Positions 44,706-60,186 of a DNA stretch of 64,000 nucleotides are shown here, in pieces. The stretch is from Desulfobacterales bacterium (GTDB lineage Bacteria; Desulfobacterota; Desulfobacteria; Desulfobacterales; SpSt-501). Positions within the stretch are counted from its first letter, which is position 1; every line of letters begins with the position of its first letter. The translations under genes and the position numbers were made by a program. The DNA lies in assembly GCA_035467535.1 (NCBI GenBank), contig DATITS010000059.1, forward strand, positions 514 through 64,513. Direction: 5' to 3'. The notes beneath the pieces were generated by a model that was given only the letters and a program-made list of their open reading frames with translations, was not told the DNA's origin and searched no databases.

Positions 44706-45332
44706 TCACTTGTCAGCCATTGCTTTGATCAGCCCAGCCGCTCTGTCCGCGTTGAAAATTCCGCACATGCAGGGCTTGAACAGACGCTCGGCGCCCTGTT
44801 CCGGGGTCATTTCCCCGTTCTTGACCTTGGCCGCCGTATCTTCGATCAGCTTCACCGTGACCATGCCATGACCGCACATGGTATTCAGTTCCAAAACGTC
44901 CTGCGGCGGCAAGCGGTCGGTCCGGCCCCAGCGACCCAGGGTGTTGTTGACCGTATGAGGGGTCAGCCCGGCTTTCTTACAGCAATCACCCACCTTGCCA
45001 AAAAGGCCGGAGACGACCACGGATATGCCTAAATCCGCCGCCTTGAGTTCCTTGAGGGCAGCGGTCATCTTTTCCGGGTCGTTGAACACGGCGTGCACCA
45101 CCGCGCGGTCCTCAACGTGCTCCAAAAGCGTATCGAGGCCGCCTTGATAGTATTCGTTGCCCAGGCGGCAATCGCCAATCCGTATGGCGCCGTTCTTCAG
45201 GCTGATTTCCAGCATTTTTCGAAGCTTGGGGCCGGATCCGACGTGGTTGATATCCTTCGACGGCATGAAGAGCAGGACATAATCCCGGCTCAAGCTCTCG
45301 GGATTGCCCACTCGATGAAGCGTGTGAGTCAT
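44706..45332 (-). CDS. Conserved-looking protein of unknown function with a C-x-H...C-x-C motif
   Basis: MTHTLHRVGNPESLSRDYVLLFMP...ELNTMCGHGMVTVKLIED...LFKPCMCGIFN. The codon usage is coding-like. The start is tightly coupled to the upstream gene: AAGGAGG lies inside that gene and the gap is 1 nt. I do not recognise the family. Confidence 0.55.
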   Translation of the reverse strand: MTHTLHRVGNPESLSRDYVLLFMPSKDINHVGSGPKLRKMLEISLKNGAIRIGDCRLGNEYYQGGLDTLLEHVEDRAVVHAVFNDPEKMTAALKELKAADLGISVVVSGLFGKVGDCCKKAGLTPHTVNNTLGRWGRTDRLPPQDVLELNTMCGHGMVTVKLIEDTAAKVKNGEMTPEQGAERLFKPCMCGIFNADRAAGLIKAMADK

Positions 45333-45333
45333 C

Positions 45334-46053
45334 TTAGTCCTCCTTGAACACCGGTCGGCCAAGGCCGACGTTTGTTTTGCCATTTGGGGCGAACCAAATG
45401 CTATTTCTGCGCATTATCTCGTTCGTCGGGATTTCTCCGTTGGAGGATACCCGGGACGCTACACAAAGGGAAAAAACGGTTTCGATGCGTTGGCTCACCT
45501 CTTTGAGGCCGGCAAAGACCTGATCGAGCTTCTCCAGGGGCACGGAGAATTCGATGATGGCCGAGAGGACCTTCTCCTTGAGAACATCGTCTTTGAATTT
45601 GCCGGTCTTGACATCGGACATCAGGGAAGTGGTGGGGTTGGAGCGCTCGAATTCCACCCCCAACGTGGCCATGGCCATGGCGATTTTCTCCACATCGTAG
45701 AACCGTGCCCCCAGGGTAGGGCGGCCGACTTCGATGCCCACGCCGGCCCATCCATGTTTGAAGCGGCCTGTGACCTCGTTGGTCTTCATCTCCTCGGTCC
45801 CTCGCCCTGAAATGCCCGATTCCGGTGCGATGGTGAGAACGTCGCTCAAAACGCTGCGCACGGTGCGCGGCCATTCCAGTTTCTGCTGATAGATGGCCTC
45901 CGTCGGGCAGTCGGCCATTCTTAGGCAGTTGTAGCATTCCGTGCACTCGTCAAAATCGATTTCGGCGTGCTCATCACCGATCGTGATGGCCCCCACCGGG
46001 CAATAGACTTCGCACTGCCCGCACGCAATGCATTTTTCCGGGTCGATTCGCAT
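45334..46053 (-). CDS. 2x[4Fe-4S] ferredoxin domain fused to an uncharacterised domain of about 175 aa
   Basis: The N-terminus has CIACGQCEVYCP and CTECYNCLRMADCP. The rest (WPRTVRSVLSDVL...GRFKHGWAGVGIEVGRPTLG...) is unknown to me. AAAGGAGAA precedes the ATG. Confidence 0.7.
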   Translation of the reverse strand: MRIDPEKCIACGQCEVYCPVGAITIGDEHAEIDFDECTECYNCLRMADCPTEAIYQQKLEWPRTVRSVLSDVLTIAPESGISGRGTEEMKTNEVTGRFKHGWAGVGIEVGRPTLGARFYDVEKIAMAMATLGVEFERSNPTTSLMSDVKTGKFKDDVLKEKVLSAIIEFSVPLEKLDQVFAGLKEVSQRIETVFSLCVASRVSSNGEIPTNEIMRRNSIWFAPNGKTNVGLGRPVFKED

Positions 46054-46103
46054 TCAACTTTCTCCTTTCTTTGTGACGCGCTCGATGAGTCTTGGAAATA
46101 CGT

Positions 46104-47381
46104 TCACATCCCGGCCATCCACATCGTCGTCGGCAGATAGAAGATGACCAGCAGGATGATCAACACGATTGCTGCCAGGAACCAGAGGACATCGCGACTG
46201 ACAACCTCGATCGGCGCTTGGGCCACGAGGGCGGATATGTAAAGCGTCTGCCCCACGGGCGGAGTGAACAGGCCGATGCCCAAAACCATAGTGATCACCA
46301 CTCCAAGCTGAATCGGGTCAACCCCCAGGTTGGTGGCAAACGGAAAAAAGATCGGCGTAAAAATTAAAAGCGAAGGGGCCAGATCCAGGAAACAACCGGT
46401 GAAGAGCAGGATCGCCGAGATGACGATGAGCGCCATGTTTCCGTTGGAAATGTATTTGACCAAGCTATCCTGCAGGGCCAGGGGCACCCGGGAGAGCACG
46501 ATGACATAGGTGAGCATGAGGGAGGTGGCAATCAGAAAAACAACCACTCCGGTCACTTTGGCAGATTCCACCAGCATCCCGAAAAGGTCCTTTAACCCGA
46601 AGGCCCGGTAATAAAGCATCTCGATGACAATGACATATAGCGCCCCGATCAGAGCCGCTTCCGTCGTGGTGTAGACGCCGGCGAGGATGCCGCCCATGAC
46701 GATCACCGGGATGAACAAGGCGGGGAAGGCTTTCACCAATTGAGGCCAGACGATGGCAAAGGAAGGCCGCGGTGCCCGATAGTGCTTGCGCCGAAAGCCC
46801 AGTAGCCCTGCCGTGAGCATCATGGCCACACCGACCAGCACACCCGGTATTACGCCGGCCAGGAAGAGCTTCCGGATGGATACCTCAGTGACCCAGGCGT
46901 AAAGAATCATGGGAATGCTCGGCGGAATGATGATGCCGATCGTCGAAGAGGCGGCGTTGAGGGCCGCGGCATACCCCTTGCCGTAGCCTTTTCGGACCAT
47001 CTCCGGAATCATGACCCCACCGATACTCGAGGCATCGGCGACAGCTGAGCCTGAACAGCCGCCGAAGAACATGTTTACCACGACCATCACGGAACTCAGA
47101 CCGCCGTAGAACCAACCGACGAGGCTGTTGGCCAGGTCCATGAGATAATTGCCCGACTTTCCCCGGTTGAGAGCAATCCCCATCAGGACAAAGAACGGCA
47201 CGGCCATGATGGGCCAGGATTCAGTGGCCATGGCCATGCGATGGGTGAGGGCCTCCACGGGGATGCGGTCGGTTATAAAGCAGTAAAGCACCGCACACAT
47301 ACCCACTGAGAATGAAATCGGTATTCTCAGAAAAAATGCGAAGACCAGAAAGCCCACGCCACAAATGAATACTGCATCCAT
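46104..47381 (-). CDS. dctM: TRAP transporter large permease
   Basis: This is a 425-aa polytopic protein of typical DctM length and hydrophobic pattern, adjacent to dctQ and dctP. Confidence 0.85.
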   Translation of the reverse strand: MDAVFICGVGFLVFAFFLRIPISFSVGMCAVLYCFITDRIPVEALTHRMAMATESWPIMAVPFFVLMGIALNRGKSGNYLMDLANSLVGWFYGGLSSVMVVVNMFFGGCSGSAVADASSIGGVMIPEMVRKGYGKGYAAALNAASSTIGIIIPPSIPMILYAWVTEVSIRKLFLAGVIPGVLVGVAMMLTAGLLGFRRKHYRAPRPSFAIVWPQLVKAFPALFIPVIVMGGILAGVYTTTEAALIGALYVIVIEMLYYRAFGLKDLFGMLVESAKVTGVVVFLIATSLMLTYVIVLSRVPLALQDSLVKYISNGNMALIVISAILLFTGCFLDLAPSLLIFTPIFFPFATNLGVDPIQLGVVITMVLGIGLFTPPVGQTLYISALVAQAPIEVVSRDVLWFLAAIVLIILLVIFYLPTTMWMAGM

Positions 47382-47492
47382 ATCAGCCTCTTTCTCAGAC
47401 TTCTTTTTGTTTAACCTTGATGCACCGAGCCCGATTCGTGAATGGGCCTCATCTTTAGCGGACGCATATCATGTCAGCGACGGTCTATTTAC

Positions 47493-48014
47493 CTACGCCT
47501 TCGCTGGATCGTTCTCTTTCTTTACGTATCTTCCCTTGCCGAAGTCGGCCTGAAACTGGTCGATTATTTTTTCGATAACGAACACCATGAAAATCAGCGC
47601 GCCGACAGGAATTCCGATGAAGTAATAAATTTTGGGGAATTTCAAGACGACAAAACTGGAGCTCAAAGAAAGGGCAACATCCGACTCATAGTAGAAAATG
47701 ACGAAGAAGAAAGCGAGGGTCAAAAAGAGTTCAATATAACGGGCCACTTTGCGGAACCTGCGAGGCAGCCGGTCAAAAACCAGCGACACCCCCAGGTGAC
47801 TATCTTGTCGATAAGCGGCGGCCGCAGCTATGAAACAAACCCAGAGGAAAACAAACAGGGGGAATTCCTCGGCCCAACCGAAGGACACATTGAAAAGGTA
47901 GCGCGAAACGACCTGAACGCCGACGGAAATACACAGTGCGGTGAATGCGCAGCCGGCGAGTATGTTGCTCAAAAAATAGACTTTGTCAAAAAAGAATCTG
48001 CCGGCCCTGTTCAT
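47493..48014 (-). CDS. dctQ: TRAP transporter small permease
   Basis: This is a 4-TM protein of about 173 aa. The start MNRAGRFF (48014) follows GGGGAGG. Confidence 0.75.
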   Translation of the reverse strand: MNRAGRFFFDKVYFLSNILAGCAFTALCISVGVQVVSRYLFNVSFGWAEEFPLFVFLWVCFIAAAAAYRQDSHLGVSLVFDRLPRRFRKVARYIELFLTLAFFFVIFYYESDVALSLSSSFVVLKFPKIYYFIGIPVGALIFMVFVIEKIIDQFQADFGKGRYVKKENDPAKA

Positions 48015-48069
48015 GCGTGCCTCCCCTGATACCCGTCCCACTCGATGGCTGAAGATTTGCCGCCCTAAG

Positions 48070-48212
48070 CAGGGTGTTGGAAAACAAGCATCAGGCTGTC
48101 AGCCAAGGCGTGCGGCGTTTTGGAAAGCGCAGCATATGCGGTCATATGTGAGCATTTACAATAGCGGCACAACGCTGGATCACGGCCTCCGGCGCGTTTT
48201 TTCAACACCCTG
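48070..48212. mobile_element. Complete 143-bp MITE-like palindromic element, copy A
   Basis: The terminal inverted repeats are CAGGGTGTTGGAAAAC and GTTTTTTCAACACCCTG. In an ungapped hand alignment, 124 of 143 positions are identical to 50793-50935. It lies between dctP and dctQ. Confidence 0.65.
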
Positions 48213-48276
48213 TTAGATCACCGAGCCGGAGGCGGCTCCCCCGGCCCTGCGTGATCAACCATTCTGCCCGTCGAGC

Positions 48277-49341
48277 CTACTTGCTCTCCGGACCGAAGTA
48301 CACCTTCCCCGTCGGGTACTCTTTTCTAACTTTTTCCACCGCAGCCAGGACTTCGTTGACCTGATCGGCGCTCCATTTACCCTTGGCCCACGCGTAAACA
48401 GGCTCCACCGCCTTCCGGAATGGCGTCAGATCGGCCACATCGTTGATTTTCATGCCGGCCGCTTCCATGGCCTTGCGCTGGTTATCTTCGTTGGCGCCGA
48501 CCTTTTTGCGAAAGTATACGGCCGCTTCAAGAGCGGCCGCCTGGATGGCCTTGCGCTGGTTGTCGTCGAGTTTCTTCCAGGTCTTTTCAGAAATTATCAG
48601 CGGAAGGGTGCTGTACTGGTGCTTGGTCACAGACATATACTTCTGCACTTCGTAAAACTTGGAAGCGTAAATATTCATAAAAGGGTTTTCCTGGCCATCC
48701 ACGACCCCTTGCGACAACGCCGTGTAGAGCTCGGAATACGACATGGGCACGGCACTGCCGCCCAGGGCGTTGATGATGTTGATGGACATTTCGGACTGAA
48801 CAACGCGGATCTTCAACCCTGTCATGTCCGCCGGTGTATTGACGGGTCGAACGTTGTTGGTCATATGTCGGAACCCGTTGTCCCACGTGGCGAGATACCG
48901 GATGCCTTTTGAAATCAGCGGCTCATAATACTTGGCCACAAACGGCTGGTCCATGAAAGCGTAGGCTTGGGAATAGTTGTCGAACAGGTAGGGCAGTTCG
49001 AGGAGCTCCTGTGTTCTTTTGGGATCGAAAACGGAGACCAGGCCGGCCGTGGTGATGTAAAAATCCAGTGTGCCCATGGACACCTGCTCCTGACAGCCTT
49101 GGTGGGTTCCTAAAACACCGGCGGGGAATATCTCGATCTTCACCTCACCCTTCGAAAGCTCATCCACCCGCTTGGCGAAGAAAAGGGTGACGTCGTGGCG
49201 GATGTTCGCCACGGCCTCTGAATGGGCCAGTTTCAAATTCACTGTTTTGGCCGTGGCCGAATCCGCTGCCAACGACAGGAAGACCAACACGGAAAGCATT
49301 AGCCCTACTGACAACCAGGTGAAAGACTTTTGAGTGCGCAT
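48277..49341 (-). CDS. dctP: TRAP transporter substrate-binding protein
   Basis: A signal peptide is followed by a DctP-type fold (LKLAHSEAVANIRH..., RVVQSEMSI). The start MRTQKSF follows AAAGGAGAA. Confidence 0.85.
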   Translation of the reverse strand: MRTQKSFTWLSVGLMLSVLVFLSLAADSATAKTVNLKLAHSEAVANIRHDVTLFFAKRVDELSKGEVKIEIFPAGVLGTHQGCQEQVSMGTLDFYITTAGLVSVFDPKRTQELLELPYLFDNYSQAYAFMDQPFVAKYYEPLISKGIRYLATWDNGFRHMTNNVRPVNTPADMTGLKIRVVQSEMSINIINALGGSAVPMSYSELYTALSQGVVDGQENPFMNIYASKFYEVQKYMSVTKHQYSTLPLIISEKTWKKLDDNQRKAIQAAALEAAVYFRKKVGANEDNQRKAMEAAGMKINDVADLTPFRKAVEPVYAWAKGKWSADQVNEVLAAVEKVRKEYPTGKVYFGPESK

Positions 49342-49571
49342 CGTCGATTCTCCTTTTTGCATGAGTTAGGGTTGGCGGGGGGAGCACGTCACTCCCAGCA
49401 CTGTATTCCTGTATACACGAATACATTATCAACCATACCCCCCATCGAAAGTCAAGCCATTTTTAGATCGGATTTCACCTCCGGCTTGTTTGGAAAGCAA
49501 TCGATGGAAGGTTGCCACAGGCGTGAATTGCATTGACAGGTTATTTCGTTTCGGATATTCATTTTCAGAAT

Positions 49572-49585
49572 ACATGTATACATGT
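49572..49585. promoter_or_regulatory. Perfect 14-bp palindrome with a GntR-type core (candidate operator)
   Basis: ACATGTATACATGT lies about 28 nt upstream of the amidohydrolase start. A second TGTATACA lies at 49410-49417 in the same divergent region. Confidence 0.45.
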
Positions 49586-49612
49586 TTTAAGACTGGTCTC
49601 GAAAGGGCGAAT

Positions 49613-50803
49613 GTGAAGACGACGCTCGTGAAAGCGGACGCAATGGTTGACGTCGCCGTCGGACACGTCAACCGGCCTGGCGCTGTTCTGATCCGAGACG
49701 GCCGCATCATCGCCACTGGACCTGAGGCCGCCCAGCGGGTTTTCGGTGTGGATGAACGGATCGACTGTGAGGGGCAGACCCTCTTGCCAGGGCTGATCGA
49801 CTGCCACAATCATCTCTCCCTTGATCCGTCACTCGATAACTATTTGCTCCGAATGAACGACAGCATTCCAGAGCTCACCATCCGAGCGATAAATACCATG
49901 GCCATGGATCTTAACGCCGGAGTTACCACCTCCCGGTGCATGGGCGATAAAGGGTTCTTGGACATCGAATGCAAAAAGGCGGCCGCGGCCGGAGCAATCG
50001 CCGGGCCTCGGCTTCTTGTGGCCACCCGCGGTATCCGGGCGCCGAACGGCCATGGCTTTGTCGGTTATCCCTTCAGCGGAGTTGAAGCCATTCGCCAAGC
50101 CGTGAGGGAAAACCTGTCGGCCGGGGCTGACCTCATTAAGATTTACACCACGGGCACGGTGAAAAGCCCTAAGGGGCTGCCGCATTATTTTTCGCTCGAG
50201 GAGGTTCAGACATTGGTGGATGAGGCCCATCGCGCCGGTGTCCCGGTAGCCACCCATTGCATCGGTGGGCCGGGACTGACAATCGCCTTGAAAGCGGGTA
50301 TTGACGTAATCGAACATGGCTATTTCGCCTCTGACGAGGGGATCGACGAAATCGGAAACCTGGACCGGTGGCTGGTGATGACCCCCAGCATTTTCTATAC
50401 GGACGCACGCATCAAAACTCTTCCGCCGAATTTGATTCAGCCCCACCTCCAACAGCGTGAGGAGGTGGGGCAGCGGATGTCTGCGGCCATAAAATCGGGA
50501 ATTAAATTCGCCGTGGGCACGGATGGAATGCACGGCGGCCTGGCGCAAGAGATCAAATACCTGACTGATTTTGGCGCCTCTGCCGCTGCTGCAATCCGAG
50601 CGGCCACTATACAGGCCGCGATTCTTTGCGGATTGGAAAACGAAATCGGCACGCTGGAAGCCGGTAAGGCCGCCGACGTTATCGGGGTGGATGGCAACCC
50701 TTATGAAGACATCAGCGCCTTGTCCCGCGTCGCGACCGTGATTCAAGGGGGCAACATCATTCGATTCAAACATGGCGGCACAAGCGCTTTAACAGGGTGT
50801 TGA
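49613..50803 (+). CDS. Amidohydrolase family metal-dependent hydrolase
   Basis: LIDCHNHL (the HxH motif) is present, followed by IKIYTTG, VATHC and VGTDG. I propose the GTG start at 49613 (VKTTLVKADAMVD...) after GAAAGGG; the track's start at 49490 is probably too long. The last three codons and the stop lie inside the repeat at 50793. Confidence 0.75.
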   Translation: MKTTLVKADAMVDVAVGHVNRPGAVLIRDGRIIATGPEAAQRVFGVDERIDCEGQTLLPGLIDCHNHLSLDPSLDNYLLRMNDSIPELTIRAINTMAMDLNAGVTTSRCMGDKGFLDIECKKAAAAGAIAGPRLLVATRGIRAPNGHGFVGYPFSGVEAIRQAVRENLSAGADLIKIYTTGTVKSPKGLPHYFSLEEVQTLVDEAHRAGVPVATHCIGGPGLTIALKAGIDVIEHGYFASDEGIDEIGNLDRWLVMTPSIFYTDARIKTLPPNLIQPHLQQREEVGQRMSAAIKSGIKFAVGTDGMHGGLAQEIKYLTDFGASAAAAIRAATIQAAILCGLENEIGTLEAGKAADVIGVDGNPYEDISALSRVATVIQGGNIIRFKHGGTSALTGC

Positions 50804-50935
50804 AAAACAAGCATCCGGCCGTCAGCCCAGGCGTGCGGCGTTTTGGAAAGCGCAGCCTATTCTGGCATATGTGAACATTTACAATAGCCGCGCAACGCTG
50901 GATTACGGCGCGAGGTGCGGTTTTTCACCACCCTG
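50793..50935. mobile_element. Complete 143-bp MITE-like palindromic element, copy B
   Basis: The terminal inverted repeats are CAGGGTGTTGAAAAAC and GTTTTTCACCACCCTG. With one extra base at each end, the element is flanked by TA on both sides. It supplies the stop codon of the amidohydrolase. Confidence 0.65.
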
Positions 50936-50964
50936 TTAAATCGACCTGACACCGGAGGAACCAC

Positions 50965-51840
50965 ATGAACACGACGATTGGAATCATTGGCTTGGGCCGC
51001 TGCGGAATGCCGGCCGTGAAGCGTTTTGTTGAGAGCGGCTTTAAAGTCTACGGATATGCGCGCAGGCCCGAGGTCATTCAGCAATTTGCAAACGTGGGCG
51101 GGGAATTCATGCCAAGCCCGGCCGCAGTGGCCACCCGTGCGGCGGTGGTCATCGTAATGGTTCTCAACGACGACCAGGTGATCGATGTCATCACCGGACC
51201 GCAGGGTATTCTCGAGGGCGCCGCAGAGGGCTCGACGGTGATCTGCATGAGCACCATTAACCGCGACAACCTCGACTGGATGGCCAGGGAGTGTGAAGCC
51301 AAAAAGACCCATTTCATCGATTGTCCTTTCACCGGCGGACCCGCCCGGGTCGCCAACGGAACGCTCACGTTGATTGCCGCGGCCCCGGAACCCGTGCTGT
51401 CACCCTGCCGTGGCATCTTGGAGGTCATCGGCAAAATCACCTACGCCGGTGAAACCCCCGGCATGGGACAGGCCATCAAACACTGCAATCAACTCTTGGT
51501 GACCGCGATACACGCCGCAGCCATTGAGCTGATACTTCTTGCTCAAAAAAGCGGTGTCGATCCCAAGCTGGTCTGTGAGGTGGTGGGCAGCGGGATCGGA
51601 GGAAACGACTATTTCCGGCTTCTTTCGAAAGCCATTCTCGAAAAAACCTCATCACCGGGCGGCATGGGACAGCTCTGGAAAGATATCAACATCGTGATCA
51701 CTTCTGGCCGCAAACACAATTTGCCGCTGCTGGTCGCCTCTGCAGTGTCCCATTACTTCAACATGTCTGTCGCCCAGGGGCTGGCGAATGATGATTCTTC
51801 CAAAATGATGGACGTCATGTTGAAAATGATCGAAAAATAA
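50965..51840 (+). CDS. Beta-hydroxyacid dehydrogenase family (3-hydroxyisobutyrate / tartronate-semialdehyde / succinate-semialdehyde reductase-like)
   Basis: IGIIGLGRCGMPAV is the N-terminal Rossmann motif. The protein is 291 aa, with DCPFTGGP and GQAIKHCNQL. GGAGGAA precedes the ATG. Confidence 0.8.
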   Translation: MNTTIGIIGLGRCGMPAVKRFVESGFKVYGYARRPEVIQQFANVGGEFMPSPAAVATRAAVVIVMVLNDDQVIDVITGPQGILEGAAEGSTVICMSTINRDNLDWMARECEAKKTHFIDCPFTGGPARVANGTLTLIAAAPEPVLSPCRGILEVIGKITYAGETPGMGQAIKHCNQLLVTAIHAAAIELILLAQKSGVDPKLVCEVVGSGIGGNDYFRLLSKAILEKTSSPGGMGQLWKDINIVITSGRKHNLPLLVASAVSHYFNMSVAQGLANDDSSKMMDVMLKMIEK

Positions 51841-51906
51841 ATTTGCCACAGCCTTCCGGATAGACCTTCCGGTCTTTGACCAACACTTACGACACTCAGG
51901 TTGCCG

Positions 51907-52701
51907 ATGAACACCTTCAATGGTTTGCGCCCCAAAGTGATAGTCGACCCGGCAAAATCGATCGCCGATCAAATTTACGAAACGCTTAAGAACGCAATCA
52001 TCAGGGGCGAAATCGCGCCCAGCCAACGGCTATTCGAGGTGGAGGTTGCCAAAATCTTCAACGCCAGCCGAACGCCGGTGCGGGAGGCTTTCCGGAGGCT
52101 GGAACAGGACGGCGCTGCCGAACGGCTGGCGCAGGGTGGCATTCGAGTTCCCCAGTTAGACGAGCAGAGCATTCAAGACCTTTTCAATCTGCGCATCATC
52201 CTCGAAGTTCATGCCATTGAGCTTGCAAGCGCGCGCATCAGCGCGGAAGAGATCGCCTACCTGAAGCAGATCCGGGCACAGGCGAACGAGTTGCTCCAGT
52301 CGAGCGACATCGGCCAAGACTTCACTTTGAGCAGGTTTTTTGAACTTAACTCCATGTTCCACGACACCATCTACAACGCGACCCGCAGCAGGGTCCTCAT
52401 CAAAGTGATCAGCAACATCCGCGCCATGGTATTGAGCATGCGATCCATGAGCATTCGCTTAGACTCGATCCGCGAAGTTTGGAATGAGCACAGCCGGCTC
52501 ATTGACCACCTCGAAGGCAAGGAAAAAACAGCTGCGGTCCGGTTGGTAAAGGAGCACGTATCCAAAACCGCGAGTCAGGTCTTGTCATTTGTTCGGTCGA
52601 AACGATCCGACACCACCGACCCTGCCGGCGCAGGCGCCCCGCAGAAATCCATTGCCGGCCGAAAGCAGGCGGTCAAGCGTAAGAAGCATCGCGCGGGCTG
52701 A
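51907..52701 (+). CDS. GntR family regulator (FCD subfamily), copy 3
   Basis: The HTH region EVEVAKIFNASRTPVREAFRRLEQDG is followed by an FCD domain and a basic C-terminal tail. Confidence 0.85.
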   Translation: MNTFNGLRPKVIVDPAKSIADQIYETLKNAIIRGEIAPSQRLFEVEVAKIFNASRTPVREAFRRLEQDGAAERLAQGGIRVPQLDEQSIQDLFNLRIILEVHAIELASARISAEEIAYLKQIRAQANELLQSSDIGQDFTLSRFFELNSMFHDTIYNATRSRVLIKVISNIRAMVLSMRSMSIRLDSIREVWNEHSRLIDHLEGKEKTAAVRLVKEHVSKTASQVLSFVRSKRSDTTDPAGAGAPQKSIAGRKQAVKRKKHRAG

Positions 52702-52720
52702 TTAGAAGGAGGATACGCAA

Positions 52721-53542
52721 GTGTTGCTGACTCGGCATCTTACCGACAACGGCGTTCGTTGGGCTTCGAATGGAATGTTTCTGACACCCTTTTTTTCGCT
52801 TTCGGCCTTTTTAGGGGTATCGCGCGCGAATGGCATTCAAATGGTCGAAGCTCACTTGACCGACAGCCCCGCCGCGGGTTCGTTGCTGGCTCCCCTTGAT
52901 GATTCGCAAGAAGTGTGGGCCAGCGGGGTCACGTATCTTCGCAGCCGGGAGGCTCGCAAGGAAGAATCCGAAGCTGCCGATATTTACCAGAAAGTGTACG
53001 ATGCGGATCGACCGGAGCTTTTTTTCAAGGTCTGCGGGTGGCGGGTGGTCGGACACGGTGGCGCTATCCGGGTGCGGCACGACAGTGCCTGGAACGTTCC
53101 TGAGCCTGAAATGACGATTGTCGTCAACTCACAGCGCGAAATCGTCGGCTATTGCGCCGGCAACGATGTTTCTTCCCGAAGCATTGAGGGCGAAAACCCG
53201 CTTTATCTGCCGCAAGCCAAAATATTCAACGGGTGCTGTGCCCTGGGCCCTGCCATCAAATTGGTTTATCCTGAGGAGATCAGGGAGATCGCCATTCATT
53301 TGGAAATCATGCGCGGGGGGGCCTCGGTGTTCGAAGGAAACACGCGGACCTCCATGATAAATCGGCCGCTTGAAAATTTGATCGAATTTCTATTCCGGGA
53401 GACGGACTTTCCAACCGGCGTATTCCTGATGACCGGAACCGGTATTGTGCCCCCGGAGAGTTTTTCACTATCAGTTGGAGACAGAGTTGTTATTACCATC
53501 GGTGAACTAAGCCTTGGAAATGTTGTTGCCAGCGGTCGCTAA
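52721..53542 (+). CDS. Fumarylacetoacetate-hydrolase family protein, 2-keto-3-deoxy-arabinonate-dehydratase (KdaD)-like
   Basis: EVWASGVTYLRSREARKEES, RPELFFK, WNVPEPEMTIVVNS, GNDVSSRSIEGENPLYLPQAKIFNGCCALGP. The GTG start follows GAAGGAGGA. The subfamily call is from memory. Confidence 0.7.
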   Translation: MLLTRHLTDNGVRWASNGMFLTPFFSLSAFLGVSRANGIQMVEAHLTDSPAAGSLLAPLDDSQEVWASGVTYLRSREARKEESEAADIYQKVYDADRPELFFKVCGWRVVGHGGAIRVRHDSAWNVPEPEMTIVVNSQREIVGYCAGNDVSSRSIEGENPLYLPQAKIFNGCCALGPAIKLVYPEEIREIAIHLEIMRGGASVFEGNTRTSMINRPLENLIEFLFRETDFPTGVFLMTGTGIVPPESFSLSVGDRVVITIGELSLGNVVASGR

Positions 53543-53724
53543 TGCCGACGGCGGGTTCATCCGATGGGCTCTTCGCTTAGACCCTTGCAAGGCCTCAGTG
53601 CTCATCGCATGAGACCATCTGCCGTGCAGACGATCCATCACTTTCAGCATGAGGACCCGTAGGCCTTCATAACCAGGCGGTTTTGCACTTCGGGATCCCC
53701 TCGAAACGTCGATGGAGACCGCTT

Positions 53725-55161
53725 TTATTCCTCTATTCCGGCCAGGCGGCGGGCGGCGCGTTTACGCGCCTCGACGTCGCTTTCCCGCAGGATGGTCACC
53801 CGGTGGGCTTCGGGAGAGCCGCCCCCGTGGATGTCCGAAATCGTGTCCGCACTTTCCATCGCCATTTTTTCAACCAGGCGAAACATCTTGACCCGTTTTT
53901 CCACCGGCACATCCTGCTTGCCCTTCAGGTATTTTTTCAGCAGCCCGCCGATTTCCGGGTTGTCGAAATCGCGATCCGAGGGCAGATCTGCAACGTATCC
54001 TCCGCAGACATCGACCATCAAGCGAATGGCCTCGGCCATTTCCTTGCCCTCGTGTATTTTAGATGCATTCGCCAGCACCGTGTCGATAAAATAGGTCCCC
54101 GACGGCATCTTCATGCCCTCGTAAGAGGCCGCCAAGCTGCATCCGTACAGGGTTTCGGCGCGGTGAATCATGTCGATAATTTTTTGTTTGAGGTGGCCGG
54201 CCCGGCTCGTGCCGTTGTAGTCCATCATCGTCAGGGCTGCGCCGGTCATGCAGTCGATCTTGCCGGATTTGCACCCCCCGTGGCTCTGGCGGTGGAAGGA
54301 AGAGAACGTGACGACCATGTCGACGGCAAACTCCGTTTCGCCGCACATGAAGACGCGCTCCCACGGCACGAAGACGTCGTCGAAGATGACCGTCGGGCAG
54401 TACTTGGAATAACGGACATTGCCGATGTCGCAACCTTCCAGCTCCCGGCTGTCCAGGCTGGAGCGCCCCACGACGTGAATCAGCCCCGGCGTGTCGTTGG
54501 GGATGGCGAACGCCACGGCATAGTCTTCGTCCCCCGGTCGCAGCGCCCGGGTCGGCAAAACGATGATCTCGTGGGAGGAGAGCGAGCCTGTCTGATGGGC
54601 CTTGGCGCCTCGCACGACAATACCGTCATCCCGGCGCTCGACCACGCGCAGGTACATGTCCTTATCCGCCTGCTCGTGGGAACCGAGCGAGCGGTCGCCT
54701 TTGACGTCCGTAACCCCGGCATTGCAGGTCAGATCATTTTTTTGAACGTGTTTCAAAAAACCCTGGAACCGTTCGAAGTAAGGTGTGTCGTGTTTCTGAT
54801 CGATGTCGTAGGTGACGATGGACAATGCCGATAGACAGTCCAGTCCGGTGCAGCGCTGGTGGCAGGTGCCGACACGATTGCCGAGCGCGCGGTTGATCTT
54901 GACGCGGGCGACCAGATCGGCGATCGAACCGGGGGGCAGCGTGAAACGGTTGACCGGTTCGTCTATCAGCGGGCTGTGGGCCAGGATCAGATCGCGGTAT
55001 TCATCCATCTGCGCCAGCTCGTAGGTGGCGCCGGTCGACTCGATACCGGATCGCAGGCGGGGATTGTCGACGATGTCGGTGATGCGCTCACCGAACATGT
55101 AGGCGGTCGGCTTCATCTGCCGCAGCGATTCGATGTACTCTTCCTTGGTTTTAACTCCCAT
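53725..55161 (-). CDS. 4-hydroxybutyryl-CoA dehydratase/vinylacetyl-CoA isomerase (AbfD)-like Fe-S flavoenzyme
   Basis: The protein belongs to the 4-hydroxyphenylacetate-3-hydroxylase/AbfD fold. C100-x3-C104 (GTCHQRCTG) and H290-x6-C297 (FHRQSHGGC) reproduce the spacing of the AbfD [4Fe-4S] ligands (C99, C103, H292, C299, as I recall). The start MGVKTKEEY follows GAGGAG. Confidence 0.75.
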   Translation of the reverse strand: MGVKTKEEYIESLRQMKPTAYMFGERITDIVDNPRLRSGIESTGATYELAQMDEYRDLILAHSPLIDEPVNRFTLPPGSIADLVARVKINRALGNRVGTCHQRCTGLDCLSALSIVTYDIDQKHDTPYFERFQGFLKHVQKNDLTCNAGVTDVKGDRSLGSHEQADKDMYLRVVERRDDGIVVRGAKAHQTGSLSSHEIIVLPTRALRPGDEDYAVAFAIPNDTPGLIHVVGRSSLDSRELEGCDIGNVRYSKYCPTVIFDDVFVPWERVFMCGETEFAVDMVVTFSSFHRQSHGGCKSGKIDCMTGAALTMMDYNGTSRAGHLKQKIIDMIHRAETLYGCSLAASYEGMKMPSGTYFIDTVLANASKIHEGKEMAEAIRLMVDVCGGYVADLPSDRDFDNPEIGGLLKKYLKGKQDVPVEKRVKMFRLVEKMAMESADTISDIHGGGSPEAHRVTILRESDVEARKRAARRLAGIEE

Positions 55162-55245
55162 TTCAACTATCTCCTCATGCATGACGTGATTTGCAATGAT
55201 GTGCGCCCGGTTGTCACCTTCGGCGGCGCTTCCGGGAGGCTCGCG

Positions 55246-55785
55246 TCAGGCCGGCCTGACACGCTTTACTCCCAAGTCCAAGGCGCTCAAGTTGACCTGA
55301 TCCTTGCCCGCAGGAACCGCGGCCACGATCGCCGCCTCCAACGCCTTGCGGCTGACGATTTCGGTAATCTTGAACAAGGCACCGAGCATGACAATATTCG
55401 CCGCCAGAGGCACCTTCAGCTCGTTGCGCGCGATCGAGGTGGCTGCGACGTGATATACCTTCTTGGCATTCGGCGGCGTGCTCCGAACCATGTCGCTGTC
55501 GACGATCAGAATCCCGCTCGACTTCAAAGCAGCTCCGAAACGGTCGATGGAGTCCTGCGCCTGGGCCACGAGAATGTCCGACTGAATGACCCGCGGATAC
55601 TCGATGGGCTGATCGGATACGATGACCCAGGTTGCGGCAAACCCCCCGCGCAACTCTGAGGAATAGGCCTGCGTCTGGGTCGCATAGCGACGGTCGAAGG
55701 TGACGGCCGCCGATCCCAGGATCACGCCGGCCAGGATCGATCCTTGTCCCCCGACTCCGGCTATGGTCAGGTCTGTTTGTGCCAT
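55246..55785 (-). CDS. 2-oxoacid:ferredoxin oxidoreductase, gamma subunit
   Basis: MAQTDLTIAGVGGQGSILAG...; the ATG overlaps the beta-subunit stop. Confidence 0.8.
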   Translation of the reverse strand: MAQTDLTIAGVGGQGSILAGVILGSAAVTFDRRYATQTQAYSSELRGGFAATWVIVSDQPIEYPRVIQSDILVAQAQDSIDRFGAALKSSGILIVDSDMVRSTPPNAKKVYHVAATSIARNELKVPLAANIVMLGALFKITEIVSRKALEAAIVAAVPAGKDQVNLSALDLGVKRVRPA

Positions 55786-56618
55786 TAGGCCTCCTCCGCC
55801 AATTCGCAGCGCAGCCGGGCCCACTGGGCGCTCAACTCGGCTTTTTCTCGGTCGACGAATTCGCCCACGATGATTTTCCCCTCGAGCTGCGCCGGGGCCA
55901 TCTCCAGCGCCTTGTCGCGCCGCACGCTGTTTTCTTTAAAATGTTGCAACATGCGGGTCGCGCCGCCCAACTTGCTGGCCCGGCCGAATTGCACCGGACA
56001 CTGGCTCACGGCTTCGATCAGCGCAAACCCTTTTTTTTCAATGCCTTTTTTGATGGCGCGGCACATTTGGCGGGGGTGATGGGTCGTCCAGCGCGCAACG
56101 TAGGACGCCCCGGCGGCAGTGACCATCTCCGAAACGTCAAAATCGTATTCCATGGAACCGTACGGGCTGGTGATGGTCTTTATTCCCGGGGGGGTCGTGG
56201 GTGCCGTCTGTCCGCCGGTCATCCCATAAATTCCGTTGTTGATCAGCACCACGGTCAGGTTGATGTTGCGCCGGGCCGCGTGAATCAAATGATTGCCGCC
56301 GATCGCCGTCAAATCGCCGTCACCGCTGACCACCATCACGTGCTTGTGCGGCAGACCGAGCTTGACGCCCGTAGCAAAGGCAATCGGCCTGCCGTGCGTG
56401 GTGTGCAGCGTGTCGGTGTTGTAAAAAGGACTCGGGACCCAGGCTGAACAGCCGATGCCCGAAACAAAAACAAAATCATCGATATCGATTTGCAGCTCGT
56501 CAATCGCCCACAGGATCGATTGCGAGACCGTACCGATGCCGCATCCGGGGCAGGTGGTGGTGCGGGCGACATGGCGGCGGGTATATTTTTCCCTCAATGG
56601 ATGGGTAGTTGCCGTCAT
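55785..56618 (-). CDS. 2-oxoacid:ferredoxin oxidoreductase, beta (TPP-binding) subunit
   Basis: CPGCGIG, GIGCSAW and the GDGD..IGGNH..NNGIYGMTGGQ TPP motif are present. Confidence 0.85.
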   Translation of the reverse strand: MTATTHPLREKYTRRHVARTTTCPGCGIGTVSQSILWAIDELQIDIDDFVFVSGIGCSAWVPSPFYNTDTLHTTHGRPIAFATGVKLGLPHKHVMVVSGDGDLTAIGGNHLIHAARRNINLTVVLINNGIYGMTGGQTAPTTPPGIKTITSPYGSMEYDFDVSEMVTAAGASYVARWTTHHPRQMCRAIKKGIEKKGFALIEAVSQCPVQFGRASKLGGATRMLQHFKENSVRRDKALEMAPAQLEGKIIVGEFVDREKAELSAQWARLRCELAEEA

Positions 56619-57772
56619 TGCATCATCTCCTTGACCTTCGCTACGATGTATTCCGGATCGTGGATCTGCCCCAGGAGCTGGGGGCCCAGAAAAGAGACCC
56701 GGCAGGCATGCGCGGATTCGGCCTTGATATAGGGGTAGAGCTGTCCGGTGTTGTTTTCCAATACCAGCAGGTGCTCGACACGCTCCGCCACGCGGCGAAT
56801 TTCAAGGTCGGGAAGCGGCCAGCAGGTCACCAGGCGCAGCGTGCCCACCTTTAATCCCTGGCTGCGCGCCATGCGTGCCGCCGCACGCGCCGAGCGTGAC
56901 ACCGTGCCGCAGCTGACGAGCACCAGTTCGGCATCGCCGGCCTCGTCCCGCACCTGCACGATGTCGTCGCGGTGGCTGAGGATCTTTTCGATCGGCCGCA
57001 TCACATAGCGGTGCATGGTCTCCGGGTCCGACAGGTTCCGCATGCCGTGTTCGTCATGGCAGGAGCTGGTCACATGGGCCTTGAGTCCCCGGCCGAACAC
57101 GGGCATGGGCGCCACGTCGACGTCCAGAAAATCGATACGTTCAAGAACCGTCTCGGCCGGCGCTGCAATCTTTCGACTCTCGATGGCGATCTGCTCGCCC
57201 GGGGGAATGACGATCTGCTCCCGCATGTGCCCGATAAAACCGTCGGCGAGCACAAAGACCGGCACCCGATATTTCTCTGCCAGGTTGAACGCGCGGATGG
57301 TCAGGTCGAACATCTCCTGGGGGCTCTCCGGGCACAGGGCGATGATCTGATAGTCCCCGTGGGACCCACGGGCGACCTGGACGACATCACCGCCGAGTCC
57401 GACCGACGGCACCCCGGTGGACGGCCCGAAGCGCTGCACATCGACAATGACCAGCGGTGTTTCCGTGGCGACCGCGAAACCGATGGTTTCCTGCATCAGA
57501 CTGATGCCGGGACCGGAAGTGACGGTCATGGCCTTGCACCCGGCCCAGGAAGCACCGACCGCCGAACAGATGGCGCTGATTTCGTCTTCGGTTTGCAGGA
57601 AAGTGCCGTCCAAGTGCGGCAACCTGGCAGCCAATTGGTTGGCGATTTCACTGGCCGGCGTAATCGGGTATCCGGCCACGAAATTGCACCCGGCGGCAAG
57701 GGCGCCCTCGGTGCAGGCCCAATTGCCCATTTCGAAGTGGGTTCCCGTTAAAACTCTATGGTTCCGACCCAT
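56615..57772 (-). CDS. 2-oxoacid:ferredoxin oxidoreductase, alpha subunit
   Basis: GNWACTEGALAAGCNFVAGYPITPASEI...TSGPGISLMQE. Confidence 0.85.
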   Translation of the reverse strand: MGRNHRVLTGTHFEMGNWACTEGALAAGCNFVAGYPITPASEIANQLAARLPHLDGTFLQTEDEISAICSAVGASWAGCKAMTVTSGPGISLMQETIGFAVATETPLVIVDVQRFGPSTGVPSVGLGGDVVQVARGSHGDYQIIALCPESPQEMFDLTIRAFNLAEKYRVPVFVLADGFIGHMREQIVIPPGEQIAIESRKIAAPAETVLERIDFLDVDVAPMPVFGRGLKAHVTSSCHDEHGMRNLSDPETMHRYVMRPIEKILSHRDDIVQVRDEAGDAELVLVSCGTVSRSARAAARMARSQGLKVGTLRLVTCWPLPDLEIRRVAERVEHLLVLENNTGQLYPYIKAESAHACRVSFLGPQLLGQIHDPEYIVAKVKEMMQ

Positions 57773-58019
57773 GAGAATCCTCTGAATTGCAATCGGTCAA
57801 TTTTTCTCCCTTTTCAACAATGATCGCGAAATCAGGACAGCAGAGCATGCACGTTCGGCAGCCGGTGCATTCATCCGGGTCCGTCAGTTCGGGCGGATAG
57901 TAGCCGGCCGCGTTCATTTCCCTGCAGGCCTGGAACAACTGCTGCGGACAGACAAACTTGCAAATCCCGCAATCATCGACGCCCTTGCATGACTGCGGGA
58001 GTATCGTCAGCTTCGCCAT
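57756..58019 (-). CDS. 4Fe-4S dicluster ferredoxin (OFOR delta-type subunit)
   Basis: The 87-aa protein has CKGVDDCGICKFVCP and CTGCRTCMLCCP. AAGGAG precedes the ATG. Confidence 0.8.
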   Translation of the reverse strand: MAKLTILPQSCKGVDDCGICKFVCPQQLFQACREMNAAGYYPPELTDPDECTGCRTCMLCCPDFAIIVEKGEKLTDCNSEDSHGSEP

Positions 58020-58038
58020 ACAAATCTCCTTAACAGGC

Positions 58039-59109
58039 TCAGGAATACTTTATGTCCAAACCCAATCGAGCAGCTAGCGAATCCAACTCACGACAAGTGG
58101 CTTCGGAAATGAGAATCCCTTTCTCCAATCTTTGTTTTTGAGTTCGTGCCTCTATTTCTCCCGGGAAAAAAATCTCTTCAACGCCCTTTGCTTTTCCGCT
58201 GCTTTTTAGCATCAGGATGTATTCATCCAAGCTATTCTTAAAGGCATCGCGGCCGACGAAACAATCCGGATCGATCGCCATGAATGAATGGCAGGTGCCT
58301 TGTATTCCCGTAGGATCCTCTTCGTAAAGGCTTTTTATATTTCGCGTGATCTTGCCGCCCGTCAGCAAGGCGGCCAGAATCTCGTGGGCGACCGCCAAGC
58401 CGTATCCCTTGTGCCAGCCGATAGGGGCCAGGGATCCCCCGCCTTCATACCCTTCGTAGGGGTCTTCCGTGGGCAGACCCTCTTTGTCGACGGCCCATCC
58501 CAAGGGTATTTTTTCCCCTTTTTTGCGCATCAGGATCAAACGCCCCGAAGCCACTACCGAACATGAAAAGTCCACCACCACATCATCGTGCTTTTCTGCC
58601 GGAAAGGCGTAGGACATGGGGTTATTCCCCATGATTCGCTCACGACCGCCGAAAGGCGCCATCATGGGCGCTGAATTTGAGCAAATATAACCGACAAGGT
58701 CTTTTTCCGAGGCCATCATGGGAAAAAGACCGGTTACACCGAAATGCCCACTGTCTTTAACCGATACCCAGCCGATACAGTGCTCTTCGGCCAGTTCGAT
58801 CGCCAATTGCATGGCCTTGTAAGAAACCACATGCCCCATGGATCCGTGCGCATCGACAAAGGCCGACGCTCCTTTTCGCCGCGTAATGTCGAATCGGCAT
58901 TTTTTTCGGACAAAATCCTTTTCCAGCCGTTTTATATATATCGGCAGGCGCATTACACCGTGGCTCTCAATGCCACGCAAATCGGATCGAGCCAAAAGAT
59001 CCGCTACAATCGCAGCCTCATCTTCCGGAACGCCGACCGCCAGGTAGCATTGTTTAACGAAAAGGTTTAAGTCATCGAACCGGATGCGTCGAGTTCCATT
59101 ATTGCTCAT
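58039..59109 (-). CDS. Ldh_2 family (malate / L-sulfolactate / L-2-hydroxycarboxylate) dehydrogenase
   Basis: GIESHGVMRLPIYIKRL, SGHFG, NNPMSYAFP and GWHKGYGLA are present. The start MSNNGTRR (59109) follows AAGGAG. The gene is visibly more AT-rich than the OFOR genes downstream. Confidence 0.8.
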   Translation of the reverse strand: MSNNGTRRIRFDDLNLFVKQCYLAVGVPEDEAAIVADLLARSDLRGIESHGVMRLPIYIKRLEKDFVRKKCRFDITRRKGASAFVDAHGSMGHVVSYKAMQLAIELAEEHCIGWVSVKDSGHFGVTGLFPMMASEKDLVGYICSNSAPMMAPFGGRERIMGNNPMSYAFPAEKHDDVVVDFSCSVVASGRLILMRKKGEKIPLGWAVDKEGLPTEDPYEGYEGGGSLAPIGWHKGYGLAVAHEILAALLTGGKITRNIKSLYEEDPTGIQGTCHSFMAIDPDCFVGRDAFKNSLDEYILMLKSSGKAKGVEEIFFPGEIEARTQKQRLEKGILISEATCRELDSLAARLGLDIKYS

Positions 59110-59140
59110 CTCTTGCTCCTTGGATGGTATGGTGGTTGTC

Positions 59141-59172
59141 AAAATAACGTTCCGACTGTCGGGCGTTATTTT
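59141..59172. promoter_or_regulatory. 32-bp near-perfect palindrome in the leader of the Ldh_2-OFOR-AbfD operon
   Basis: AAAATAACGTTCCGAC-T-GTCGGGCGTTATTTT lies 32 nt upstream of the ATG at 59109. Confidence 0.4.
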
Positions 59173-59677: not shown

Positions 59678-59712
59678 AGGTTAGGTTGCCAATAAAGACG
59701 GCAACCTAACCT
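59678..59712 (-). terminator. 13-bp-stem hairpin downstream of the NTF2-like remnant
   Basis: The stems are AGGTTAGGTTGCC and GGCAACCTAACCT with a 9-nt loop. No U-run follows on either strand. Confidence 0.35.
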
Positions 59713-59750
59713 GCGCGGCGAAAGCGGCTGGAAAATAAAAATCGGGCAGA

Positions 59751-59954: not shown

Positions 59955-59977
59955 TCAACATATAGTTTTAATTATAG

Positions 59978-60151: not shown

Positions 60152-60186
60152 GATCCCCACCCTGGTCCCGTTGAATCTCCTATCCT

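Follow-up and report, generated by a model that had tools for sequence, protein, structure and literature searches.

The DNA analyzed here, called the window throughout, is a 64,000-nucleotide (nt) stretch from a Desulfobacterales bacterium (GenBank assembly GCA_035467535.1, contig DATITS010000059.1, positions 514 to 64,513). Its subject of interest is a set of six minus-strand genes, module A, that runs from position 59142 to 53725 and encodes, in order, an Ldh_2-family 2-hydroxyacid dehydrogenase, the delta, alpha, beta, and gamma subunits of a 2-oxoacid:ferredoxin oxidoreductase (OFOR), and a protein resembling the 4-hydroxybutyryl-CoA dehydratase AbfD. The successive intergenic distances are 19, −17, −4, about −1, and 84 nt, and this spacing, with overlaps or gaps of at most 84 nt, is operon-like. 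Convergent with module A are plus-strand genes for a beta-hydroxyacid dehydrogenase (BHADH), a GntR regulator, and a KdaD-like protein of the FAH family, in that order. An original prediction, made from the sequence alone, had joined the two sets into one possible route from C5 2-oxo acids to crotonyl-CoA. All nine open reading frames (ORFs) that it named lie where it placed them, as judged from the ORF list. Pfam or NCBIfam models match every one of them, weakly only in the case of the OFOR delta subunit. The ATG at 59109 that it took as the Ldh_2 start is an internal alternative start of a longer ORF. OFOR gamma probably begins at the ATG at 55785, which gives a protein of 179 amino acids (aa), the commonest size in related loci. 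The coordinates of all features are collected in Table 1.

Counted from Met8 of its ORF, the AbfD-like protein is 478 aa long, the same length as its closest database homologs, and it scores 314 and 210 bits against the Pfam domains HpaB_N and HpaB. It aligns over its full length with C. aminobutyricum AbfD (PDB 1U8V; E = 5e-129, 43% identity) and matches the N. maritimus enzyme (PDB 6VJR) at E = 2e-122. The original prediction had recognized the spacing of the [4Fe-4S] ligands; in the alignment with 1U8V, C100, C104, H290, and C297 (Met8 numbering) fall exactly on ligands C99, C103, H292, and C299, and these four are invariant across 74 orthologs. Beyond the ligands, T190, E257, Y296, and E455 reportedly matter to the dehydratase activity of AbfD (bioRxiv 10.1101/2020.02.05.935528). 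Three of these residues, overlooked in the original prediction, are replaced in all 74 sequences of the clade: E257 by Cys, Y296 by His, and E455 by Ser (then Asp). T190, K300, and R90 are retained in all 74. In total, 25 positions are fixed differently in the clade and in strict canonical sequences; the changes also include G255K, A460G, and Q466H, with G255K and Q466H present in every one of the 74 members. Across the segments that hold the catalytic positions, the clade shows a loss of two Glu and a gain of one Lys and two His, swaps that may reflect substrate charge. Because three of the four non-ligand residues are replaced throughout the clade, ordinary 4-hydroxybutyryl-CoA dehydratase activity is doubtful, and the AbfD-like protein is most likely not an ordinary enzyme of that kind.

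The clade is sharply delimited. In an exhaustive representative search, its members were at least 77% identical to one another, and the nearest full-length relatives outside it, at 48% and 44% identity, were AbfD proteins of the canonical E/Y/E type. Orthologs at 77% identity or more were found in at least 80 species-level genomes, and clade-specific patterns gave 294 matching stretches in all. Most carriers are Desulfobacterota, with some Bacillota and Chloroflexota metagenome-assembled genomes; genome labels comprise Desulfobacterales, Desulfatiglandales, Syntrophus, Syntrophorhabdus, Syntrophomonadaceae, Dethiobacter, and Chloroflexota, and Syntrophus buswellii and Syntrophorhabdus aromaticivorans are among the carriers that bear species names.

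Gene neighborhoods were surveyed by tblastn and ORF clustering at 80 loci (given L numbers here) around AbfD-like clade members, covering 10 kb on each side, and the genes that could supply a CoA thioester were counted over the 67 loci with at least 2.5 kb upstream of the AbfD-like gene. The OFOR delta-alpha-beta-gamma set lies directly upstream at 12 of the 67. At 42 others, genes for an ADP-forming CoA ligase resembling SucC and SucD stand in its place, and the two systems were never found together (0/67). The ligase genes are usually divergent from the AbfD-like gene, with a GntR/FCD regulator between them. They are co-directional in Firmicutes, where the minimal unit SucC-SucD-AbfD has an Ldh_2 gene alongside at three of five loci (L031, L046, and L073). 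The SucD-like alpha subunit passes the NCBIfam cutoff for succinate-CoA ligase; the SucC-like beta subunit does not. Our main argument about function follows from this pattern: since two unrelated systems that form CoA thioesters alternate before the AbfD-like gene, their thioester would be the substrate of the AbfD-like enzyme.

The reciprocal test gave a similar picture. Homologs of OFOR alpha at 76% identity or more are numerous, and six of their contexts were inspected (77 to 88% identity, long contigs). An intact AbfD-like gene directly follows gamma in four, one of these genes being frameshifted in its assembly; one further context has only an inverted HpaB_N fragment, and one has no AbfD-like gene. 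With four intact genes and one fragment after six OFORs, this OFOR clade gives the impression of a dedicated partner and not of a housekeeping enzyme, and it is probably, to judge from sequence and context, a dedicated catabolic paralog. We conclude that the OFOR/AbfD-like pairing is a real, co-conserved unit; a survey of such neighborhoods was the check that the original prediction had called for. Its reasoning that an OFOR directly followed by AbfD makes a 4-hydroxyacyl-CoA stands in part: conservation supports the coupling of the two enzymes, but the ordinary dehydratase chemistry that it assumed fits poorly with the replacement of E257, Y296, and E455. Over the 86 loci formed by the 80 AbfD-like and 6 OFOR alpha contexts, and within 10 kb on each side, the recurrent annotated neighbor clusters were the SucCD-like ligase, OFOR, GntR, a GlpO/LhgO-like protein with PNDR and DUF1667, Ldh_2, D-2-hydroxyacid dehydrogenase (D-2HADH), transporters, and acyl-CoA dehydrogenase; 4-hydroxybutyrate dehydrogenase, CoA-transferase, and succinate-semialdehyde dehydrogenase were not among them. 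The searchable literature yielded no account of an OFOR-AbfD or SucCD-AbfD arrangement, an absence that is no proof of novelty. Taken on its sequences and neighborhoods, the AbfD-like clade is a widespread AbfD-family group with an apparently remodeled active site and dedicated thioester suppliers.

The OFOR itself has the subunit order of H. pylori OorDABC (PDB 8YS5), in agreement with the original prediction. Its alpha subunit scores 455 bits against NCBIfam PRK08659 (cutoff, 411), a generic 2-oxoacid model, and its solved relatives include P. furiosus 1YD7 (1e-104) and H. pylori OorA (2e-65). Among solved structures, beta comes closest to H. pylori OorB (8YS5_C, 5e-66), and its score against the 2-oxoglutarate-specific NCBIfam model is 254, compared with a cutoff of 364. 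Gamma reaches 179 bits against PRK08537 (cutoff, 235), and delta scores 41 where the NCBIfam cutoff is 125; delta occupies the same position in 16 related loci, at 51 to 70% identity.

An enzyme that oxidizes 2-hydroxyacids is a recurrent third partner and comes in three nonhomologous forms. A PHGDH-like D-2HADH is encoded immediately upstream of OFOR delta at 8 of 16 OFOR loci. Ldh_2 proteins of two subtypes occur beside the AbfD-like gene at about 10 loci: orthologs of the window type (65 to 70% identity) are convergent and downstream of the AbfD-like gene in L011 and L166, and the second subtype is co-directional and downstream in L162, L163, L011, and L043. The third form is found in the co-directional arrangement AbfD-FADox-PNDR-DUF1667 (16/64 loci), whose FADox, with DAO and BFD domains, resembles type-2 glycerol-3-phosphate oxidase or L-2-hydroxyglutarate oxidase. 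These oxidoreductases could take part in hydroxy acid oxidation or act as redox partners of the AbfD-like enzyme. Syntrophus buswellii has this arrangement without SucCD or OFOR genes nearby.

The nearest solved relatives of the window Ldh_2 are type-2 malate dehydrogenases and the L-sulfolactate dehydrogenase of M. jannaschii, and the protein falls below every NCBIfam equivalog cutoff. Its gene has a G+C content (GC) of 0.511 and a third-position GC (GC3) of 0.56, the second-lowest GC in a window where genes average 0.589 (standard deviation, 0.039). The OFOR alpha, beta, and gamma genes and the AbfD-like gene have GC of 0.59 to 0.63 and GC3 of 0.74 to 0.78; the delta gene is intermediate (GC 0.54, GC3 0.66). 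The G+C counts from which the original prediction argued that Ldh_2 was recruited separately, 25 of 60 nt at 58081-58140 and 45 of 60 at 57361-57420, are exact. Since the slot upstream of OFOR delta is mostly held by D-2HADH, the occurrence of a low-GC Ldh_2 there fits such a history. The evidence therefore supports separate recruitment, with the qualification that the window type of Ldh_2 is itself a recurring associate of the module. Upstream of Ldh_2, about 1 kb of lower GC (0.45 to 0.50; 59143-60186) separates it from a gene for a TAXI-type solute-binding protein of a tripartite ATP-independent periplasmic (TRAP) transporter (60187-61680). This gap wholly contains no ORF longer than 71 aa and has no Rfam match, and a search within it for a remnant of a displaced D-2HADH or regulator found none. 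Two −35/−10-like sites, at 59335-59308 and 59280-59252, face Ldh_2; a promoter and terminator scan did no better than on shuffled sequence, and an Rfam scan of the window gave no matches.

Table 1. Coordinates of modules A and B, of the two LarA-like genes elsewhere in the window, and list of related loci with the FADox arrangement
Feature	Position	Strand	Match or basis
Module A
Ldh_2-family NAD(P)-dependent 2-hydroxyacid dehydrogenase, first operon gene	58039..59142	-	PF02615, 382 bits
OFOR delta (2x[4Fe-4S] ferredoxin-like)	57756..58019	-	Weak Fer4 and OGOR_delta/OorD matches
OFOR alpha	56615..57772	-	POR_N and PFOR_II domains
OFOR beta, thiamine pyrophosphate-binding, proximal [4Fe-4S] cysteines	55785..56618	-	TPP_enzyme_C domain
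OFOR gamma	55246..55824	-	PF01558 POR domain
AbfD-family [4Fe-4S]/FAD enzyme, distinct clade	53725..55161	-	HpaB_N and HpaB domains
Module B
KdaD-like FAH-family dehydratase, 2-keto-3-deoxy-pentonate dehydratase type	52721..53542	+	PDB 2Q18
GntR/FCD regulator	51901..52701	+	Pfam GntR and FCD
BHADH	50965..51840	+	NAD_binding_2 and NAD_binding_11
Amidohydrolase, heads plus-strand KdaD operon	49490..50803	+	Amidohydro_1; nearest model Xaa-Pro dipeptidase, below cutoff
Divergent TRAP operon	44706..49362	-	Pfam matches
DctP	48277-49362	-	
DctQ	47493-48041	-	
DctM	46104-47381	-	
Ferredoxin-domain (Fer4) protein, 239 aa, N-terminal 2x[4Fe-4S] and ~180-aa domain without family	45334-46053	-	
orf225, Cys-rich 225-aa protein without family match	44706-45383	-	
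Elsewhere in the window
LarA-like nickel-pincer isomerase	40303-41571		NCBIfam group 22
LarA-like nickel-pincer isomerase	12819-14138		NCBIfam group 22
Related loci
AbfD-FADox-PNDR-DUF1667 (downstream of AbfD)	L017, L025, L030, L032, L035-L037, L039, L040, L049, L052, L054, L079		

The convergent plus-strand genes belong to a second set, module B (44706-53542). The original prediction's reading of the FAH protein as a KdaD-type dehydratase is sound: residues 57-263 match S. solfataricus KdaD (PDB 2Q18) at E = 4e-54, the PEPE and E-x-ENPLYLPQ(A/S)K motifs are kept, and so is the aligned Asp of the xDVS motif. BHADH has succinate-semialdehyde and tartronate-semialdehyde reductases among its relatives and reaches none of the NCBIfam equivalog cutoffs; all the GntR/FCD proteins fall far short of theirs. 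The module also includes an amidohydrolase and a divergent TRAP operon that had escaped notice. For the Fer4 protein and orf225 of the latter, Pfam, NCBIfam, and PDB gave nothing but the ferredoxin domain, and the mean pLDDT of a single-sequence AlphaFold model of orf225, 52, did not suffice for a fold search. A panB-type gene (43843-44709, minus strand; 312 bits against an NCBIfam equivalog cutoff of 208) adjoins the far end of the TRAP/Fer4/orf225 operon.

A separate set of 80 metagenomic loci, centered on relatives of KdaD, was also surveyed. Close KdaD orthologs (62 to 96% identity) keep TRAP DctPQM, the amidohydrolase, BHADH, GntR, the Fer4 protein, and orf225, and in L090 and L091 the TRAP, BHADH-GntR-KdaD, Fer4, and orf225 genes are all collinear. 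The GntR orthologs are 68 to 91% identical; those in L081, L087, L088, L090, L091, and L094 separate BHADH from KdaD, and that of L086 is immediately upstream of KdaD. BHADH orthologs in KdaD loci are 76 to 92% identical, L088 has an amidohydrolase ortholog (80% identity) upstream of BHADH, and the Fer4/orf225 pair is 85 to 89% identical in L089, L091, and L092. Such a pair at L044:18646-19989 also adjoins a D-2HADH gene, about 7 kb downstream of an OFOR/AbfD-like operon, and it may constitute a ferredoxin-linked enzyme of hydroxy- or oxo-acid metabolism. Genes for pentonate dehydratase and 2,5-dioxopentanoate dehydrogenase are not adjacent to KdaD here or in the close orthologs; IlvD/Edd-family genes flank only more distant KdaD relatives (53 to 60% identity), where pentonate pathways would lead one to expect them, and the IlvD-type gene of the window (35446-37131) is in a different cluster from the KdaD-like gene.

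Nowhere in the two surveys do the modules meet. AbfD or OFOR genes accompany the KdaD module at none of the 80 KdaD loci, no FAH or IlvD homolog was found at the 86 AbfD-like or OFOR loci, and the single BHADH match there is weak (28%, L029). In L081, whose KdaD protein is ~96% identical to that of the window, nucleotide similarity ends within ~8 nt of the stop codon of KdaD. In the comparison of L081:2490-3996 with the window from 53543 onward, the place of the AbfD-like operon is taken by an unrelated minus-strand ORF of 290 aa. This difference is a recent rearrangement or insertion at the junction. Together, the break in L081 and the separate conserved partners mark the tail-to-tail junction, 53543-53724, as a synteny breakpoint between two modules. 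We conclude that module B is a separate sugar-acid or keto-deoxy-acid module and that its adjacency to module A is genome-specific; the link that the original prediction had drawn between them is not upheld.

Other parts of the window encode comparable functions. Two further organic-acid clusters, 34502-43495 and 7742-14138, each have a TctABC tripartite tricarboxylate transporter and a LarA-like isomerase. The first also has the IlvD-type dehydratase, an RraA-like aldolase (34502-35230), a Zn-dependent alcohol dehydrogenase, and a GntR/FCD regulator. In the second, a 653-aa protein (10861-12822, plus strand) in which a URO-D-like (methyltransferase-type) domain is fused to B12-binding_2 and B12-binding domains is encoded directly upstream of the LarA-like gene and downstream of TctBAC, an unusual pairing. 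These clusters give the window the look of a catabolic island for hydroxy acids and sugar acids. A separate acyl-CoA module at 26327-30761, unrelated to module A, has acyl-CoA dehydrogenase and family III CoA-transferase genes beside a PrpR_N/sigma-54 activator (28815-30761).

For module A, a ferredoxin-linked operon that is most likely self-contained, we tentatively favor, at a little short of an even chance, a direct coupling of the OFOR to the AbfD-like enzyme through a thioester of the C4-C5 dicarboxylic or gamma-substituted class; this coupling, the class of substrate, and the way in which carbon flows are what we infer here from sequence and gene order. Ldh_2 would oxidize an imported 2-hydroxy acid to the 2-oxo acid, which the four-subunit Oor/Kor-type OFOR would convert to an acyl-CoA, CO2, and reduced ferredoxin. 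That acyl-CoA, most likely of the succinyl-CoA or 4-hydroxyacyl-CoA type, would be the direct substrate of the specialized AbfD-family [4Fe-4S]/FAD enzyme, in which the His-ligated cluster thought to bind the gamma substituent is retained and the Glu257/Tyr296/Glu455 set is replaced. The AbfD-like enzyme would then pass carbon to enoyl-CoA and beta-oxidation-type metabolism. Our best single guess for the input would be 2-hydroxyglutarate via 2-oxoglutarate. A dicarboxylate is suggested because OFOR beta is nearest OorB, the SucD-like subunit passes its cutoff, and Ldh_2 is nearest malate and sulfolactate enzymes; the LhgO-like alternative dehydrogenase and the canonical product shared by Oor/Kor enzymes and SucCD, succinyl-CoA, point to the same series. 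The SucCD-type ligase, as the commoner supplier, points away from a monocarboxylic 4-hydroxybutyryl route.

Several observations weigh against this proposal. At 13 of the 67 AbfD-like loci neither supplier is nearby, and we found no paper on the AbfD-like clade in the searchable literature. Canonical specificity is not established by the scores, since the SucC-like beta subunit, and likewise OFOR beta, gamma, and delta, fall under the 2-oxoglutarate or succinate cutoffs. To our knowledge, no AbfD-type reaction applies to succinyl-CoA, and a simple succinyl-CoA story is further weakened by those scores, by the lack of conserved succinate-to-4-hydroxybutyrate genes nearby, and by the missing canonical residues. 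If instead the thioester is 4-hydroxybutyryl-CoA, the SucCD-type supplier and the lost catalytic residues are awkward. Moreover, some genes of extended OFOR loci suggest that the input is a sugar acid and not 2-hydroxyglutarate: those for a LarA-like nickel-pincer isomerase, a cupin, an SDR, and a BaiCD/FadH-like flavoenzyme, along with DUF386, CUT1 ABC or TRAP transporters, and aldehyde:ferredoxin oxidoreductase.

The same input might reach an ordinary AbfD by a longer path, which the original prediction had listed as its alternative and which we regard as unlikely, if worth serious thought: 2-hydroxyglutarate would be oxidized to 2-oxoglutarate by Ldh_2 and converted to succinyl-CoA by the OFOR, and enzymes encoded elsewhere would then yield succinate semialdehyde, 4-hydroxybutyrate, and 4-hydroxybutyryl-CoA on the way to crotonyl-CoA. 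The partner families fit this path at least as well as the original prediction's preferred one: the two suppliers that alternate beside the AbfD-like gene canonically make succinyl-CoA, and the Ldh_2 subgroup, the PHGDH-like D-2HADH, and the LhgO-like flavoprotein all suit interconversion of 2-hydroxyglutarate and 2-oxoglutarate. In L163 and L166, an aldehyde:ferredoxin oxidoreductase that could interconvert succinate and succinate semialdehyde adjoins the operon, and the nearest relatives outside the clade are canonical AbfD proteins. What this path lacks is its middle: the enzymes of the intermediate steps are absent from the recurrent neighbors at the 86 loci, whereas C. kluyveri and P. gingivalis cluster all of these steps, and no clade member retains E257, Y296, or E455. 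The accessory genes of the extended OFOR loci, the LarA-like isomerase (group 22), cupin, SDR, CUT1 ABC or TRAP transporters, and DUF386, together with an Iso_dh-family dehydrogenase, would suit an OFOR that acts on a keto-deoxy or oxidized sugar acid to give a polyhydroxyacyl-CoA such as 3,4-dihydroxybutyryl-CoA, from which the AbfD-like enzyme would remove the gamma-hydroxyl, for example, to give acetoacetyl-CoA. These genes occur at a minority of loci and not within the window operon, the reaction is hypothetical, and we know of no SucCD-type ligase for polyhydroxy monocarboxylates; we judge this route improbable.

The residue changes themselves could instead point to a carboxylated gamma-hydroxyacyl-CoA, for example, with dehydration of 2-hydroxyglutaryl-5-CoA to glutaconyl-CoA bypassing the ATP-dependent activator chemistry of 2-hydroxyglutaryl-CoA dehydratase. 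G255K, E257C, Y296H, E455S, and Q466H would fit an extra negative charge on the substrate, an argument made from sequence. SucCD-family ligases act on dicarboxylates, and the Firmicute SucC-SucD-AbfD unit with Ldh_2 would complete a three-step route from 2-oxoglutarate to glutaconyl-CoA; Syntrophus, Syntrophorhabdus, and Desulfatiglandales, moreover, are groups that metabolize glutaconyl-CoA. The OFOR-type operons, that of the window included, would however need 5-hydroxy-2-oxoadipate, for which we know of no natural source, and we are aware of no biochemical precedent for the reaction, so that we hold it to be decidedly unlikely. The wider proposition, that the clade performs some new reaction on a dicarboxylic or gamma-substituted acyl-CoA fed by OFOR or a SucCD-type ligase, of which this dehydration would be one example, strikes us as unlikely to a slightly lesser degree. 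Least probable of all is the single unit of the original prediction, an oxygen-independent replacement for the end of the Weimberg pathway in which KdaD would make 2,5-dioxopentanoate, BHADH 5-hydroxy-2-oxopentanoate, the OFOR 4-hydroxybutyryl-CoA, and the AbfD-like enzyme crotonyl-CoA. The identity of KdaD is solid, BHADH has semialdehyde reductases among its kin, the gene sets are physically adjacent in the window, and conservation backs the step from OFOR to the AbfD-like enzyme. Yet the sets share no locus in either survey, synteny ends just past the KdaD stop codon in L081, and KdaD has conserved partners of its own. The scheme also gives Ldh_2 no role, its central intermediate, 5-hydroxy-2-oxopentanoate, is not named in the searchable literature, the residues of true 4-hydroxybutyryl-CoA dehydratases are missing, and a SucCD-type ligase is an alternative supplier. 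On the absence of overlap and the L081 breakpoint we reject this KdaD/BHADH/OFOR/AbfD unit. Sulfonate, itaconate, malyl-CoA, glutaryl-CoA, and 2-oxopent-4-enoate/vinylacetyl-CoA schemes were also considered on paper, and nothing discriminated among them.

AbfD is a model for radical chemistry without B12, S-adenosylmethionine, or ATP, and its proposed mechanism depends on Tyr296, Glu455, and Glu257, the set thought to generate the radical. A clade that keeps the His-ligated cluster and lacks all three would imply either that these residues are dispensable or that a different reaction is catalyzed. The either/or pairing with a dedicated OFOR or a SucCD-type ligase would define a pathway of three enzymes, open to testing, in syntrophs and sulfate reducers, which are important to the turnover of carbon under anaerobic conditions. 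Were the clade to use a substrate such as 2-hydroxyglutaryl-5-CoA, it would be a counterpart of 2-hydroxyglutaryl-CoA dehydratase that needs no activator and would give anaerobes a new way into crotonyl-CoA metabolism. Many annotated homologs are labeled "4-hydroxybutyryl-CoA dehydratase" in public databases, and if abfD-type markers catch the clade, the potential for butyrate formation or the 4-hydroxybutyrate cycle may be overestimated.

Comparison with known systems places module A near several pathways. The AbfD-like protein shares with AbfD (1U8V and 6VJR) the HpaB fold, the [4Fe-4S] ligands, T190, K300, and R90; it differs in having Cys, His, and Ser for E257, Y296, and E455, in the identity gap between at least 77% within the clade and at most 48% outside it, and in neighbors that are OFOR or SucCD-like ligase genes rather than those for 4-hydroxybutyrate dehydrogenase and CoA-transferase. 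Similarly, the OFOR resembles OorDABC/KorABCD in its D-A-B-C order, in the thiamine pyrophosphate binding and OorB-like CxxC cluster motif of beta, and in its ferredoxin-like delta subunit, but beta, gamma, and delta score below cutoff, alpha is closer to 1YD7 than to OorA, and this clade usually precedes an AbfD-like gene. The FAH protein of module B has the catalytic domain and motifs of the Weimberg KdaD from S. solfataricus; in contrast to the Weimberg pathway, its subgroup is accompanied by TRAP, amidohydrolase, BHADH, Fer4, and orf225 genes. The succinate or 4-aminobutyrate-to-butyrate pathway of C. kluyveri, C. aminobutyricum, and P. gingivalis and the archaeal 4-hydroxybutyrate cycles also place an AbfD-family enzyme at the succinyl-CoA level, with crotonyl-CoA as a plausible exit, but module A lacks nearby genes for the intermediate steps, would obtain its CoA ester from OFOR or a SucCD-type ligase, and has the altered residues. 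The hydroxyglutarate pathway (HgdH, GctAB, HgdABC, Gcd) requires a CoA-transferase and an ATP-dependent activator, neither of which is part of module A, whose putative dehydratase belongs to the AbfD and not the HgdAB family. By analogy, however, the two would follow a similar logic, from a dehydrogenase through a CoA ester to a radical-type dehydratase, and HgdH belongs to the same superfamily as the D-2HADH partner of the AbfD-like loci.

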